Assembly (NCBI GenBank): GCA_963662275.1 | Contig: OY759316.1 | Location: 3,584,001 to 3,648,000 of the forward strand | From: Candidatus Cloacimonadales bacterium | GTDB taxonomy: Bacteria; Cloacimonadota; Cloacimonadia; Cloacimonadales; DAONDQ01 | Reading direction: 5' to 3' | DNA: 64,000 bases | In this document: one piece after another, positions 4,114-64,000 of the stretch | Layout: every line of letters begins with the position of its first letter | Position numbering within the stretch: position 1 is the stretch's first letter | Position numbers and translations under genes: made by a program | The notes under the pieces: generated by a model | What the model was told of the DNA's origin: nothing | The model's database searches: none | What the model saw: only the letters and a program-made list of their open reading frames with translations

Positions 4114-5535
4114 CTACCCTCTATATTCTGAAGGATCGATCAAATAGTGAGAGAATTTCAGATACAGGTTCTGCCTGGGTATCTTTGATTGATCTGCGGC
4201 AAGAGAAATATTTCCATGGCAGCTCTTAAGAAGCTCTACCAGATATTCTTTTTCAAAGGATTGCTTAGCTTCCGGATAAGGTAACTGTGTTAAACGATTT
4301 AAAGACATTTCCTGTTCTTCAGCAAATATGTAGTCTGGTAAATCCTCTGGCACAAGAGCTGAATGTTCTGCCAGGATTACTGCATGTTCCAGGGTATTTC
4401 GCAACTCACGAATATTTCCTTCCCATTTTCTGGAATCGAGTATAGATAATACAGGTTTTGAGATGGTTAGCTGCTTCCCGTATTTCTGGCTGAATTCCTT
4501 CACAAATTCATGAGAAAGCAGTTTTATGTCTTCATGTCTTTCCCTGAGTGAAGGAATATGAATATTTATGATATTCAATCGATAATATAAGTCTTCCCGG
4601 AAATTACCATTGACGACTTCCTGTTTGATATCCTTGTTCGTAGCTGTAATGACACGTACATCAACATGAAAGTCCCTGTCTCCACCAACTTGACGAATCG
4701 CTCCCTTTTCCAGGGCTTTTAATAATTTGACTTGGAATGCCAAGCTTGTTTCCGTTATTTCATCCAGGAATAATGTGCCTCCGTTAGCTTCCATGAAGTA
4801 GCCCATTTTATCACGAACAGCATCTGTAAATGCACCTTTTTTATGACCAAAGAGCAAACTCTCTAGAAGTGTTTCTGATAAACTCCCACAATTGACTGCT
4901 ACAAATACTTGTTCCTTACGTTTACTATTCTGATGAATGAGTTCAGCAAATAATCCTTTGCCAACACCAGTTTCACCGGATATGAGAACGGTTGTATCTA
5001 AAGGAGCTATCTTCTGGACTTTATTAATGACAGATTGAATAGACAAGCTTGTCCCAATCACTCGTTGACCATCAAAGTTATCCTGCAGTAATCGATTTAA
5101 GCGGTCATTTTCCTCGACCAGCCATTGTGTTTTTAATATCTTCTTTACCATGAGATTGATCAATTCCAAGTTGCGAACAGGCTTCAAGATAAATTCATCT
5201 GCACCTAATTTCATGGCTTGAACTGCTGTTTCAATTGTAGCATGACCAGATATGACAATGACAGAGATGAAAGGCCATTGCATCTTGATCTGCTGAATCA
5301 GTTCCAAACCATTTTCACCGGGTAAAACCAAATCTGTCATGGCAATATGGAATCTTCTCAACTCTAGTTGCCTGAGTGCTTCCACGACTGTTAAAGCAGT
5401 AACTACTTCATAATCCTGGTACAACTGCATACTGAATAATTCCAAGGCATTCGGATCATCATCAACGATGAGAATCCTCGGTCTTACTTTATTGTTTTGG
5501 ATAACAGGTGTTGGTGATTCCTGGTTTTTTTTCAT
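4114..5535 (-). CDS. Sigma-54-dependent NtrC/AtoC-type response regulator
   Basis: Receiver (ILIVDDD), AAA+ (GETGVGK, GAFTDA, TLFLDEI, FREDLYYRL), Fis HTH. Confidence 0.95.
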   Translation of the reverse strand: MKKNQESPTPVIQNNKVRPRILIVDDDPNALELFSMQLYQDYEVVTALTVVEALRQLELRRFHIAMTDLVLPGENGLELIQQIKMQWPFISVIVISGHATIETAVQAMKLGADEFILKPVRNLELINLMVKKILKTQWLVEENDRLNRLLQDNFDGQRVIGTSLSIQSVINKVQKIAPLDTTVLISGETGVGKGLFAELIHQNSKRKEQVFVAVNCGSLSETLLESLLFGHKKGAFTDAVRDKMGYFMEANGGTLFLDEITETSLAFQVKLLKALEKGAIRQVGGDRDFHVDVRVITATNKDIKQEVVNGNFREDLYYRLNIINIHIPSLRERHEDIKLLSHEFVKEFSQKYGKQLTISKPVLSILDSRKWEGNIRELRNTLEHAVILAEHSALVPEDLPDYIFAEEQEMSLNRLTQLPYPEAKQSFEKEYLVELLKSCHGNISLAADQSKIPRQNLYLKFSHYLIDPSEYRG

Positions 5536-31063: not shown

Positions 31064-31635
31064 TTTTGTGTTTTTCATCTTAAAAGCTTCCCTCTTTTGA
31101 GCACAAGAGAGGGATGAGAGGGTGAGTTCGTGGTTGACTTTCTTCTCTGCAAATCTTAAATCTTAAATCTTAAATTCTGCCCCTCTTCTCTGTACTTCGC
31201 ACTTCGAAGTTCGAACTTCGCACTTCTCTCAGGATCCTCTCACAAATCTCTCACATCCTAAGAGATTTCTCACGCTATTTTCTGTGAATTCCATCCTCTT
31301 CCTCTCCGAATTTTCTTTCTGCTCTTTTTCCGAGCTATTCCCTACTCCCTATTCCCTTTTGCCCTTTTCTTTTCCGCTCTCTTTCCGCCCTGTTCGCTAT
31401 ACGCTATTCCCTTCTGCATATACTATCCGGACGGTTGTGGTTTTTTTTGTAGCTTACATTGGCAATGTGTTGTAACTGATAATGGTATTGTCAGATTTTC
31501 CATCAGGGATTGCCAATCCCCTCATACAACAGAATGCCATTCTATGTTACAATGCTGTGGCTATTTCCTTCAGATAATGTGTTTGCATGGTTTTGTAGCG
31601 CTTACTTCAGGATGTATCTGGTATGAAGAGCAGAC

Positions 31636-59404: not shown

Positions 59405-59622
59405 CAGCAGGATCGGCATCCTACACTACAATGCAAGACACAGTTACGTAAGATTGGAATCTTATGCCACAACCGCGTAAATGCGGAGCTACGATACAGT
59501 AGGATCGGCATCCTACTCCACAACCGCGTAAATGCGGAGCTACGATACAGTAGGATCGGCATTCTACTCCACAACCGCGTAAATGCGGAGCTACGTATAG
59601 TAGGATCGGCATCCTACTCCAC
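59405..59622. repeat. 3 x 51-bp tandem repeat with GTAGGATCGGCATCCTAC REP
   Basis: Units start 59467, 59518, 59569; inverted partner at 59262-59289. Confidence 0.88.
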
Positions 59623-60168
59623 ATGAAATAGGAACACATTTGCTGGCACCGGTTACTTCCCACAAATTGAAACATCACACCTACCAGGGATATATCGCTA
59701 TGGAGAACCTGGCTCAGTATTTGAATATCAAGATGTTTCATTATACAGATTACAACCGTTCGGATGAAAGCTATTACCACTATCATTTTTTTCTGGAACT
59801 ATATGAAAAGCTGGATAAGCAATATCCCATGGCAAAGGTGCAGAAATTATTCAAACTTGCTGTAAAAAAGGCTGTGAAGGATGGGATTCAAGCAGGATAA
59901 ACAGTTTAACATTCATATTAATAAACGGACGAATCAACTCTCTGCTGGAGGAAAGACGGCATTAAAATTTTCTGAGAAACATTGAGCTGATAGATTTGGG
60001 ATTATAAAGAGCCCCCCCAAATAAAAGACAATCTCTTTCCTCATGACGATTTCAATGATATAGACACGCTATGTATTAGTATCATAAAAATATCCAAAAA
60101 TACTGCCTTATGGAATAAATTTTGTTACAAGAATAACCATAGTAACATCTGTCAAGAAGGAGCGAGCA

Positions 60169-61503
60169 ATGATGAGAAAATTGTTTTATTCTTATTTTAT
60201 TTTAATCTTCTTAACCGGAATCTTCTCTTTATCTGCTCAAACCTACCAGGCAACACGTCTAGTAGAACGGAATAGTGTGGAACATGGTTCCATGTGCACA
60301 GATGATATCTGGGAATCTTATACAGATTACAAACGGGAGATTGTACATTATTCCTCACTACAGGCAGATGTGATTGATTCCGTGGAAGTATTAAGTAAGC
60401 GAATCCAAACAGGTTATCCAAATAACTGGGTTCCATACCAGACCTATGATTTCCATCCTTCAGTTACTTTGTTAAATGAGGGAAGGATCGTCAATTTCAA
60501 TATCACCAGTACCCTAGGATGGTTTCCCAATTCGATCGTTGAAGTGTATGATTCAATGAACCATCTCGTTATGGTACACAGAGATTATGTTCACGATAAC
60601 ATACATACGGGAATAAGAAAGACTCTTTCCTATTTACCGGATGGCAATATCGACAATACATCAAGCTTTATATATGGCTGGGATACTGAACCAGATCAAT
60701 ATCTCAAGACAGTTCCCAATTATGATAACCAAGGCAGAAGGCTCTATGAAATACAATATACATCTCCTGATTCGATAACTTGGACTCCGGTAACCAAGAC
60801 CATCTTCACGTATACAGGAGAGACATATCCCGAGGGTTTGGTATTTCATACTTACCACCCCTTATTTTGTTTTAGTTCCTTTAATAACTGGGGTTCTGTT
60901 TTCTATAATGATGTTCCGGGTTTGCAAACTCCTTATGTAATAGATTCACTGGTCGTGCAACATTACTCCGATGGACAGTGGGCGGATAGTTTATATACTG
61001 ATTACCAGGTGAATCATTCGACAGGAAACGGATATGGATTTCAAACACGGGAGATCAATCTGACCATACCATTACCCATCGATGCTCAATACAAGCGAAT
61101 GAATTTTTATTTCCATGAAAATGGATATTATAACGGTGAATCCTATAGTATAGATGATGGACTCGCTCCACCTTGGGATCAAAGTATCAGCTATGCGTGG
61201 GAAGAGATAACTCCCAATCACGAACAAATTGCTATTCCTCAATCGGAAATCAGGATTGCTTGTTACCCGAATCCTTTTCAAATTAATCTGAATATCGTAC
61301 TTTCCAGCAAAGGAAACCAACCTACTGAGATATCAATCTATAACATCAGAGGGCAATTGGTAAGAAGTTGGCATCAAGTAAAAGGGAAAGAACTTACTTG
61401 GGATGGATTTGACAAGAATAAAAAGCATTCTCCTACTGGCATATATTTCATCAAGGCTCAACAAGGTAAAAGTGAAACCGTTAGGAAGTTCGTTAAAATG
61501 TAG
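60169..61503 (+). CDS. Secreted protein with FlgD-Ig/T9SS-like CTD
   Basis: Signal peptide; CYPNPF, IYNIRGQLV, GIYFIK. Confidence 0.82.
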   Translation: MMRKLFYSYFILIFLTGIFSLSAQTYQATRLVERNSVEHGSMCTDDIWESYTDYKREIVHYSSLQADVIDSVEVLSKRIQTGYPNNWVPYQTYDFHPSVTLLNEGRIVNFNITSTLGWFPNSIVEVYDSMNHLVMVHRDYVHDNIHTGIRKTLSYLPDGNIDNTSSFIYGWDTEPDQYLKTVPNYDNQGRRLYEIQYTSPDSITWTPVTKTIFTYTGETYPEGLVFHTYHPLFCFSSFNNWGSVFYNDVPGLQTPYVIDSLVVQHYSDGQWADSLYTDYQVNHSTGNGYGFQTREINLTIPLPIDAQYKRMNFYFHENGYYNGESYSIDDGLAPPWDQSISYAWEEITPNHEQIAIPQSEIRIACYPNPFQINLNIVLSSKGNQPTEISIYNIRGQLVRSWHQVKGKELTWDGFDKNKKHSPTGIYFIKAQQGKSETVRKFVKM

Positions 61504-61528
61504 AGACGCCCAAGTTGGGCGTCTCTAC
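61500..61528. repeat. Perfect REP GTAGAGACGCCCAAGTTGGGCGTCTCTAC overlapping stop codon
   Basis: 14-bp arms, 1-nt loop. Confidence 0.9.
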
Positions 61529-61569
61529 AATGATATGATACTACTAATCCAGGTAAACTCTTTGTGGAA

Positions 61570-61822
61570 TGATATCGGTTCAATAGCTCTTCACTTTTGA
61601 CAGCTTTGGGAAGATCAAAGCTGATAGTTGTGGAAGTATCAAGATTCCAAGCGTACTTCTCAACAAACTGTGCATGTGAAGGATTCGTGATATTATAAAT
61701 ACAAATTTCATTCCATGCAGTTTCAGGGAAGAAAAGAAGATCATCTTTAATATACAAAACCCTTACTGCTGACCTATCATAAGGTAATATACTCTGAATA
61801 ATAGCAGGATTAGCAGGATGTT
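61570..61822 (-). pseudogene. Remnant of LVIVD-repeat/CTD secreted protein
   Basis: HPANPAII..., ICIYNITNPSHAQFV, STTISFDLP fragments; no proper start. Confidence 0.55.
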
Positions 61823-62007
61823 ATATCCTGAAGCTTGTAACTTTTGGAGTCTGCACCTTCCAGAGTTATTGGGATGCAATCCCAACAATATAACAGCTTG
61901 CAAAGCTATGGTACGATGCAGATTCCGATAATACCATTATCGGTTACAACACATTACCAATGTAAGTTACAAGCATTTCGCAAAAGGCAAAAAGGGAAAA
62001 CTATAAA

Positions 62008-62895
62008 TCAAGGGGAAATCCTGACCAAGCGAAAGCCTATATCGCCGTAGCTGTAAGTCGAAGTGCTGTAGCTCCGAATGGAAACGGCGCAGTTGTTGTC
62101 ATTGCTGTACCAGCCACCGCCGCGTAGCACACGGTATGACCCGCTGACAGCGCCATGCGGGTTGGTCTGTGCACTACCCGGATAAGCACCATAAATGTCC
62201 CAATTCCACTCCCAGATGTTGCCACTCATATCATATAAGTCCAGTTCATTGGCTGTTTTCGTTCCAACTGTGTGACTCGTGCCACCAGAGTTATCACCAT
62301 ACCAAGCCACAATACCTAGCGTGTTACTGCCACTATAGGTATAACCATGAGTTGAGTTTCCACCCTTTGCAGCAAACTCCCATTCCGCTTCCGTAGGTAG
62401 ACGATAGCCATTGGCTGTCCAACTACAGGAGACATTGGTGTGATTGTTATAGTCTGTGTTCCAACCTGCAGGCCAGTCTGCAGGATTAGTCCCATAAGTA
62501 CTATAACTGTAGCAGGGAGTTATACCTTCATTCAAGCTGCGCCTGTTGCAATACTCAATGGTATTGAACCAGGAAACCTGTTCAACTGGTCCATTGGTCA
62601 CGCCAGTGAAATAGGAAGGATTCACTCCCATCACTGTCTGATAAGCAGACTGTGTCAGCTCATACTTATCCATGTAAAAGGAGGATACAGTTACATCAGA
62701 TGTGCCGTTATTGAAAGTACCGCCTGGAACAAGGATCATCTGGACAGGAGTTGTTCCCTGGCTGAAAGTGATATCCGTGATTTCATTCAGATTAAAAGTG
62801 GTTGTACCGTTTGTAGTATGCACATTCATCTGAGTCTGCGCAAAAAGAAAAGATGTAAAAAGTATAAGGCAGCTAATCAATAATATTTTGTACAT
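62008..62895 (-). CDS. Secreted formylglycine-generating-enzyme-like (SUMF1/C-lectin fold) protein, putative DGR target
   Basis: PVEQVSW, YRLPTEAEWEFAA, LYDMSGNIWEW, RVLRGGGW...IGFRLVR. Confidence 0.9.
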   Translation of the reverse strand: MYKILLISCLILFTSFLFAQTQMNVHTTNGTTTFNLNEITDITFSQGTTPVQMILVPGGTFNNGTSDVTVSSFYMDKYELTQSAYQTVMGVNPSYFTGVTNGPVEQVSWFNTIEYCNRRSLNEGITPCYSYSTYGTNPADWPAGWNTDYNNHTNVSCSWTANGYRLPTEAEWEFAAKGGNSTHGYTYSGSNTLGIVAWYGDNSGGTSHTVGTKTANELDLYDMSGNIWEWNWDIYGAYPGSAQTNPHGAVSGSYRVLRGGGWYSNDNNCAVSIRSYSTSTYSYGDIGFRLVRISP

Positions 62896-62904
62896 CGTAT
62901 GCTC

Positions 62905-63357
62905 CTATTTTAACATCAGCATTTTATTGACTTTGATTTGGTCATTGCACTTGACCTTATAAATATAAGGACCCGTGGCACATGCTTTCCCGGTTTCATT
63001 CAAGCCGTTCCAGGTCAGTTCGTGTACTCCTTTAGTCATATACTCTTTTGCCAGAACCTTTACCAATTGCCCTCTAATGTTATAAATTGCTACTTCTGTC
63101 TGATACGGTTCCGACAATTCAAACTTGATTATGGTTGAGGGATTAAACGGATTGGGGTAATTGGTTAAAAACTTAATGGGGACTTTAGACAGGAACGCAA
63201 CCCAATCATTATTGGAGACATTGCTGAAATTGATCTGCTGAATATCCTGAACCTGGAACTCCGCAGTAGTTCCATTTGTGAGATGGACATACATGACATC
63301 ACAATACAACAGAAACGGAATCAGAATTAATAAAACGAGGAATATAACTCTGAACAT
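62905..63357 (-). CDS. Small secreted protein: short N-terminal module + FlgD-Ig CTD
   Basis: Signal peptide; NYPNPFNP, IYNIRGQLV, KMLMLK; GGAGG RBS. Confidence 0.85.
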   Translation of the reverse strand: MFRVIFLVLLILIPFLLYCDVMYVHLTNGTTAEFQVQDIQQINFSNVSNNDWVAFLSKVPIKFLTNYPNPFNPSTIIKFELSEPYQTEVAIYNIRGQLVKVLAKEYMTKGVHELTWNGLNETGKACATGPYIYKVKCNDQIKVNKMLMLK

Positions 63358-63521
63358 ACAAACCTCCTTGCTGGTGATATTGGGTTATCTATCAACCAGG
63401 ATAAAACGTATTAACAAACTTGTTTTAATTACTAGTTCAATTAGTAAAAATTTAAGTTACTTAGTCAATATCTAAATTTGCAGCAGAAGGGGACAGGTTC
63501 AAGATGAATAGCAGAAATAGA

Positions 63522-64000
63522 CCCCCCTACCCCCCTTCTCAAGGGGGGATAATCATTAACGCCCCCCTTCTCAATGGGAAACTATCCTAAAAATCCTCCC
63601 TTCTCAAGGGAAAACTATCCTTAAAATCCCCCTCCTCAAGGGGAAACTATCCTTAAAATCCCCCTTCTCAAGGGGAAACTATCCTTAAAATCCCCCTTCT
63701 CAATGGGAAACTATCCTAAAAATCCTCCCTTCTCAAGGGAAAACTATCCTTAAAATCCCCCTTCTCAATGGGAAACTATCCTAAAAATCCTCCCTTCTCA
63801 AGGGAAAACTATCCTTAAAATCCCCCTTCTCAAGGGGAAACTATCCTAAAAATCCTCCCTTCTCAAGGGGAAACTATCCTTAAAATCCCCCTTCTCAAGG
63901 GGAAACTATCCTTAAAATCCTCCCTTCTCAAGGGGGAAACTATCCTTAAAATCCCCCCTTCTCAAGGGGAAACTATCCTTAAAATCCCCCTCCTCAAGGG
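63522..64000. repeat. DUF559-type palindrome followed by ~14 x 32-33-bp tandem repeat (runs off window)
   Basis: Unit CCCCCTTCTCAAGGGGAAACTATCCTTAAAAT with recurring variants; no unique spacers. Confidence 0.92.

Follow-up and report, generated by a model that had tools for sequence, protein, structure and literature searches.

The window analyzed here is a 64,000-nt stretch of DNA (G000:C1:3584001-3648000) from a genome (G000) that consists of one complete 4.38-Mb contig (4,378,784 bp), with a completeness of 99.97% and without any N. Close to the window end lies a two-gene cassette on the minus strand, in which a gene for an FGE-sulfatase-type protein of 295 residues is preceded by a shorter gene with a type-9 secretion system (T9SS) sorting domain, and is followed by two hairpins (Table 1). 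The codon string that the original prediction had read as a gene end is the reverse complement of positions 62008-62142, i.e., the final 44 codons and the stop of the minus-strand open reading frame 62008..62895.

The Pfam FGE-sulfatase domain (PF03781) spans residues 52–292 of the 295-aa protein (E 3.7e-39), and the top match in the PDB is Treponema denticola variable protein 1, TvpA (PDB code 2Y3C; E 9.2e-41, residues 63–291). The protein is thus predicted to have the C-terminal C-type-lectin/FGE-type fold of variable proteins that are targets of DGRs, judging from PF03781 and from an alignment with 2Y3C that runs through residue 291. Solved structures of catalytic FGEs match with E values of 1e-12 or worse and only in the C-terminal half (residues ~155–291), and no model of NCBIfam is matched above its cut-off, those for FGE, EgtB and related proteins included (best scores 72–73 bits, cut-offs 350–544). 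Assignment as a T9SS lipoprotein of the PorK/GldK type is not supported, with a score of 72.6 bits on TIGR03525, which has a cut-off of 350. The N-terminus is hydrophobic and, by eye, signal-like. The gene product is likely to be a secreted or surface protein with a TvpA-like C-type-lectin fold, and it would bind a ligand.

Table 1 Features of the cassette and its 3' flank (window positions)
Feature	Position	Strand	Basis or remark
TvpA-like FGE-sulfatase/C-type-lectin-fold gene, 295 aa	62008..62895	(-)	Open reading frame, Pfam and PDB match
VR-like segment, 117 nt, AGCGGG... to ...GGCTTTCGC	62029..62145	(-)	Mutagenesis footprint, no cognate template
Upstream gene, 150 aa, FlgD_ig/T9SS C-terminal sorting domain	62905..63357	(-)	Pfam
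Small hairpin ACATT-GGT-AATGT, 5-bp stem	61951..61963	(-)	45 nt past the stop
Larger hairpin CCGATAAT-GGT-ATTATCGG, 8-bp AT-rich stem, 3-nt loop	61925..61943	(-)	To 83 nt past the stop

The upstream gene matches Pfam FlgD_ig (E 9.5e-10) and Por_Secre_tail (E 8.5e-6). On its upstream side the cassette adjoins a tandem array (63531-64000, to the window end) of a 32-nt unit repeated 14.5 times, or alternatively of a 65-nt unit repeated 6.7 times, with a palindrome of the CCCCTTCTCAAGGGG type in each unit; the array has no spacers, which rules out a CRISPR-like nature. A second tandem repeat, with a 51-nt unit in 3.1 copies at 96% match, occupies the intergenic positions 59467-59623.

The FGE gene is a member of a lineage-specific expansion, with 48 FGE-domain matches in the 4.38-Mb genome. 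Outside the window, a 3333-aa open frame (G000:C1:2908014-2917562) comprises about eleven tandem FGE-sulfatase domains. The two nearest paralogs (G000 3761663-3762553 and 4325562-4326446) share 82% and 80% amino-acid identity with the 295-aa protein, and alignment of the three paralog loci reveals that the gene was duplicated together with the upstream T9SS-tail gene, the 3' end of which is alignable across all three loci, and with the 3' hairpin. In an exploratory tree of 61 domain sequences with the variable region removed, to be read as a sketch only, the gene falls into a clade of its own genome and DGR-linked targets are scattered elsewhere.

DGRs in related genomes

With the Bordetella phage Brt protein as query, a high-scoring DGR reverse transcriptase (RT) of 343–433 aa is found in seven of 40 related genomes (E 3.9e-52 to 2.4e-27). 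All seven RTs contain the motif [LI]P[VI]GNL[ST]SQ, which we take to be a marker of DGR RTs and which is absent from the group II RTs described below. In two of the genomes, G003 and G035, the element is arranged on one strand as FGE target/HRDC/bAvd/RT/template repeat (TR). TR adenines account for all 22 mismatches between TR and variable region (VR) in G035, for 16 of 19 and 20 of 24 in the pairs of G007, and for 19 of 25 in G003. The relatives' elements share their mechanism with the Mtd/Brt system of Bordetella phage BPP-1, as seen from the match of their RTs to Brt and from the adenine-specific TR/VR mismatches. In G001, the sole genome of the same genus, a DGR RT is lacking, and so is a close orthologue of the FGE gene.

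The order of genes in G003 and G035 is that of the HRDC-containing DGRs, which Wu et al. (2018, PMC5758913) term architecture C and for which a Treponema DGR stands as representative; in that survey HRDC genes are given for 14 of 372 DGRs, of which roughly half also have avd. The survey further includes FGE-sulfatase targets, remote ones among them. Unlike G003 and G035, which carry the full set of target, HRDC gene, bAvd, RT and TR, the genome studied here has kept no more than the target-like gene and the neighbor upstream of it.

The best non-self match of the 295-aa protein is the DGR target of G003 (65% identity, E 3.6e-116). The likeness extends beyond the protein: the gene upstream of the G003 target (L047:6144-6977) has FlgD_ig/T9SS-tail domains, as does 62905..63357, and a T-rich stretch directly past the stop is common to both target genes. 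Furthermore, the segment 62029..62145 can be aligned column for column with the TR/VR pairs of G003, G035 and G007. The assignment of the C-terminal segment as a DGR-type VR in the original prediction is therefore upheld by the homology to the VRs of relatives, by TvpA as top PDB match, and by variation at template adenines and at codon positions 1 and 2 as detailed below. The real DGR target of G003 (L047, G003:C1:1387000-1395000; VR 5047-5190 (-)) has an in-frame TGA where the TR has AAA, and this looks like a nonsense codon produced by the DGR's own adenine mutagenesis.

Composition and mutational footprint of the variable region

A GC content of about 55% in an AT-rich context had been noted for the gene end, and the values bear this out: positions 62008-62142 have 54.8% GC, whereas the window as a whole has 39.8%, the genome 39.1% and the remainder of the gene 44.5%, and only 0.26% of the 135-nt segments of the 64-kb stretch have a GC content as high or higher. 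The proposed prevalence of NNC/NNT codons is borne out as an excess of the C-ending type. Two-fold codons ending in a pyrimidine number 14 with C and 3 with T in the VR (82% C), compared with 23 and 42 in the remaining domain (35%; Fisher p = 7.5e-4). The same holds for the family, where 45 of the 48 domains (leaving aside the two halves of one frameshifted gene and a fragment at 1953199) give 370 C to 330 T in the VR (53%) and 942 to 2061 upstream of it (31%; p = 9e-26). Since a synonymous bias toward C-ending codons lies beyond the reach of selection at the protein level, a template made of AAC codons is its simplest cause.

The G003 TR provides an independent map of template adenines, against which variation among the FGE gene and its two nearest paralogs was scored. 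Columns that vary among the three paralogs make up 32 of the 39 with A in the G003 TR, compared with 17 of the 78 with another base (odds ratio 16, p = 4e-10); broken down by template base, the variable columns are 82% for A, 9 of 29 (31%) for C, 5 of 27 (19%) for G and 3 of 22 (14%) for T. The templates of G035 and G007 give 31 of 39 and 28 of 37 variable A columns, respectively. The distribution over codon positions is inverted with respect to the rest of the gene, with 22, 16 and 11 of 39 first, second and third positions variable in the VR (56, 41 and 28%), compared with 33, 29 and 124 of 250 upstream of it (13, 12 and 50%); the third positions of the VR are less variable than those in the remainder of the gene (p = 0.015). 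Read indirectly, via paralogs and the TR of a relative, the variation is thus adenine-specific, with codon positions 1 and 2 varying and the third base kept. The low divergence at third positions suggests homing into the VR after the three paralogs had split.

Compared directly with the G003 TR, the VR of the gene itself has mismatches at 18 of 39 A sites and 17 of 78 non-A sites, a moderate bias (odds ratio 3.1, p = 0.01). With the G035 TR the odds ratio is 2.6, and with the G007 TR no adenine bias is seen (odds ratio 1.3, p = 0.55). These values are of the same size as those for real VRs compared with foreign templates, which range from 1.4 to 4.4.

The footprint has to be weighed against an origin in which a retroelement was never involved, and in which the loops of the FGE/C-type-lectin fold diverged by mutation and diversifying selection, with the GC content and NNC bias being a compositional quirk. 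The C-terminus of the form R-V-x-R-G-G-x-W ... G-F-R is general to PF03781 proteins, true FGEs included, and the family has members in 39 of the 41 genomes of the order that were searched, the present one counted, compared with a DGR RT in only seven of the 40 relatives. Variation at codon positions 1 and 2 is, moreover, what binding-site residues would be expected to have, and because TR adenines lie at positions 1 and 2 of such residues, diversifying selection on the protein could yield part of the enrichment in A columns. However, protein selection explains neither a synonymous preference for C that is confined to the VR nor third positions that are less variable than in the remainder of the gene, the variation follows the adenines of an independent template, base by base, and the top match in another genome is an established DGR target that comes with a TR of its own. 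We therefore consider divergence by selection alone an improbable origin of the VR.

Search for DGR machinery and hairpins

Pfam RVT_1 and the Bordetella phage Brt protein detect an identical set of 18 RT loci in the genome. Seventeen of these belong to two multi-copy families of group II intron RT/maturases, with 11 copies of 412–465 aa and 6 copies of 444 aa, respectively; TIGR04416 (cut-off 300) gives 408 and 378 bits for representatives of the two families, and these also have a GIIM domain. The nearest group II intron RT lies at 3649746-3651143, ~1.7 kb past the window end. The remaining locus, also outside the window, encodes an 896-aa Cas6-RT-Cas1 fusion (G000:C1:3092718-3095408) with the domains Cas_Cas1 (E 3.8e-59), RVT_1 (E 3.4e-17) and Cas6 (E 1.3e-6). 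Fusions of this type are linked to the uptake of spacers from RNA.

No DGR-type RT or RT remnant is present in the genome as searched by tblastn with the DGR RTs of four relatives; only six of 76 matches lie off the known RT loci, all with E values of at least 0.12. Three matches to bAvd (PF22296) are found in the genome, with none above the cut-off; they are proteins of the PF05635 four-helix type at a distance from every RT. Four proteins of this type were considered as Avd candidates and rejected, since none reaches the bAvd cut-off and none is near an RT or an FGE gene. An HRDC accessory gene is not found in the genome with the G003 HRDC protein as query (best E 0.065).

A cognate TR is likewise missing from the genome. 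The original prediction had pointed to a blastn search of the VR against the genome as the way to a template that differs almost only at adenines, but the 44 matches are all ends of paralogous genes, at 60–80% identity and with mismatches distributed across all bases. Comparison of the C-terminal stretches of the 48 FGE-domain matches with the whole genome gave no adenine-biased, FGE-derived TR/VR pair, and a TR/VR profile built from the relatives found 46 matches in the genome, 42 of them in FGE gene ends and 4 at noise level (E of at least 0.4). The profile matches have at most 29% A and at most 7 AAY, compared with 32–33% A and 15–17 AAY in real TRs. Fragments consisting only of the C-terminal part, at G000 615402, 1701075, 1211909 and 1953199, were rejected as templates, being truncated or frameshifted remnants that are not A-rich. 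Strongly A-biased matches were also discarded as a TR signal, as all of them stem from a non-FGE flank beside the 1953199 fragment. This ~90-nt flank, upstream of the degraded fragment (G000:C1:1953080-1953290), has dozens of matches in the genome at ~80% identity, with mismatches mostly at the adenines of the flank, and is probably an A-rich dispersed repeat that we take as unrelated.

Outside the genome, two degenerate exact patterns derived from the 3' half of the VR, with N at positions possibly derived from adenines, have no match in viral contigs and none in metagenome contigs; templates with any non-adenine difference would escape these patterns, and the contig sets may omit records of this genome. 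Taken at the level of this one assembly, from which a DGR-bearing plasmid or phage could be missing, the searches do not bear out the proposal that a DGR at another site of the genome acts on the VR in trans, as neither a DGR-type RT, a bAvd above cut-off, an HRDC gene nor an A-rich TR is present. The original prediction had also held that the assignment would fall if TR and RT were absent from the genome or its relatives and variation had no adenine bias; TR and RT are found in relatives, and the variation is adenine-biased, but the genome itself has neither TR nor RT.

The short-loop hairpins that were noted 45–83 nt past the stop do exist, on the coding strand, and with coordinates, GC content and both hairpins as described, the original observation is confirmed. 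Their nature is another matter. The small hairpin is partly conserved in the paralog alignment and lies outside the minimum-free-energy fold, and the 111-nt 3' flank folds no better than its shuffled versions (z -0.9, 41 of 200 shuffles equal). The motif of the larger hairpin occurs twice in the window, compared with 0.04 matches expected, and is thus non-random. It is the palindromic repeat GAYAATGGTATTRTC with its GGT loop, present in 25 copies in the genome, e.g., at window positions 61927-61941 and 31478-31492. When 37 FGE-domain ends out of the 48 matches are considered, 15 of the 25 copies are located no more than 400 nt downstream of such an end, at 10 genes, and in 14 of them the coding strand carries the GGT loop. 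Copies are sometimes in tandem, at a spacing of 56, 91 or ~149 nt. Both nearest paralogs have compensatory changes in the stem of the larger hairpin, by which pairing is kept. Since most of the genes with a linked copy fall into the own-genome clade of the exploratory tree, the association of hairpin and FGE gene owes much to shared ancestry of the 3' flank.

The target hairpin described by Guo et al. (2011, PMC3240598) for phage-related DGRs has a GC-rich stem of 7–10 bp and a 4-nt GRNA loop, and is located 4–34 bp from the VR; in BPP-1 it lies beside the VR of a phage tail-fibre system. In contrast, the hairpins here have AT-rich stems of 5 and 8 bp and 3-nt GGT loops, lie 45–83 nt past the stop, and the larger one is a genome-wide repeat. 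A role as DGR recognition elements is rejected on stem composition, loop and distance; the real VRs of the relatives carry different hairpins, and the larger hairpin is absent from their flanks. Intrinsic terminators are rejected as well, with no terminator-like site in 61400-63600.

Origin and present state of the variable region

In contigs assembled from public sequencing runs, the VR (62008-62145) is covered by a contig of 608–955 nt in all four runs used and has no differences; these are four of five listed runs from two studies, which may not be independent, and the run with the best coverage may be the source sample. Contig joints that skip 67–154 nt over the VR were considered as alleles and are read as paralogs or relatives, with flanks at 85% identity and VRs that cannot be aligned. 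The 295-aa protein is the sole member of its 90% cluster among ~15 billion sequences. There is no sign of ongoing diversification in the run contigs or in the 90% cluster; contigs hide rare variants, and because such variants are dropped in assembly, diversification at a low level could still take place. Among the three paralogs, 17 of the 78 non-adenine scaffold columns differ, which is about the gene-wide rate, and differences of this kind mean that uniformity of the scaffold is not maintained by any single template today.

The same data bear on whether the VR could be an active remote target, rewritten in trans by a DGR on a missing plasmid, phage or other replicon, or from the surrounding community. 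PMC5758913 documents remote targets at distances above 100 kb from the RT, and avd, TR and brt placed on a plasmid are reported there to function in trans. The order to which the genome belongs does have DGRs with the appropriate architecture, and the low count of variable third positions in the VR (11 of 39, compared with 124 of 250 upstream) suggests template-driven resetting after the paralog split. However, a closed 4.38-Mb genome without N has no DGR RT, bAvd above cut-off or TR, the scaffold columns have drifted apart among the paralogs, the VR is identical in the contigs of all four runs with no other allele in the 90% cluster, and the cognate-TR patterns found nothing in viral and metagenome contigs, from which records of this genome may have been omitted. 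We therefore consider present-day rewriting in trans very unlikely.

What we consider the likely explanation is that the gene end is an orphan, frozen VR of a TvpA-like protein, which was once diversified by a DGR of the HRDC/bAvd/RT/TR type that has since been lost. In the past, this DGR would have rewritten the C-terminal ~117 nt of the gene, and error-prone reverse transcription of its template repeat would have randomized adenines, mostly in AAC and AAT codons. The retroelement would have been of the HRDC/bAvd/RT/TR type that survives in related genomes. With the loss of the DGR from the lineage, the VR would have become an orphan that is frozen and changes by ordinary mutation, and the paralog expansion would keep many differently diversified binding sites as separate genes. 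The analysis directly shows the homology to a DGR target, the mutational footprint, and that RT, Avd and TR are absent, and from these we infer that the DGR was lost, as opposed to never having been present, and that it acted after the paralog split. Instead of such a loss, the target gene alone may have been acquired.

Persistence of target genes beyond the retroelement has a precedent in Treponema denticola, where, as reported in PMC4891356, isolates lacking RT and TR retain target genes in which the differences between VRs and TRs fall mostly on adenines. The present case resembles the TvpA DGR in fold class (2Y3C, E 9.2e-41), in the C-terminal position of the VR, and in adenine-patterned VRs of target genes that outlast RT and TR; the HRDC gene in the architecture of the relatives' DGRs is a further likeness. 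It differs in that it concerns another lineage, that the orphan belongs to a far larger family of 48 domains, and that the TR available for comparison is from another family of the same order, whereas in T. denticola it is from an isolate of the same species. The template being from another family accounts for the weaker adenine bias here (odds ratio 3.1). An orphan VR that outlives its DGR has thus already been described in T. denticola, going by that report, and the supplements of DGR surveys may list further cases.

A more far-reaching reading, which we put forward tentatively and regard as possible rather than likely, is that the 48 domains are a frozen repertoire built up by repeated DGR mutagenesis and duplication, in which one template served remote paralogs after they had split, and the module was lost afterwards. 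Service of the paralogs by one template after the split would explain the low third-position divergence of the VR. If this reading is true, the extent to which the C-ending bias has faded in each paralog would time the last homing of that copy, and the 3' ends of the gene set would be marked by the hairpin repeat with the GGT loop.

Three tests that require no template from the genome itself distinguish the footprint of a DGR from the usual divergence of paralogs, i.e., variation in the TR-adenine columns of a relative, inversion of variability among codon positions, and the bias toward C-ending codons. A VR-like gene end alone is no proof of an active DGR. With a clear footprint, and with the machinery absent from a closed genome, the locus would be a clean case, from a lineage other than Treponema, in which a target gene has outlived its retroelement, and the large paralog family with its graded footprint can be used for studying how diversity made by a DGR becomes fixed as a gene family.
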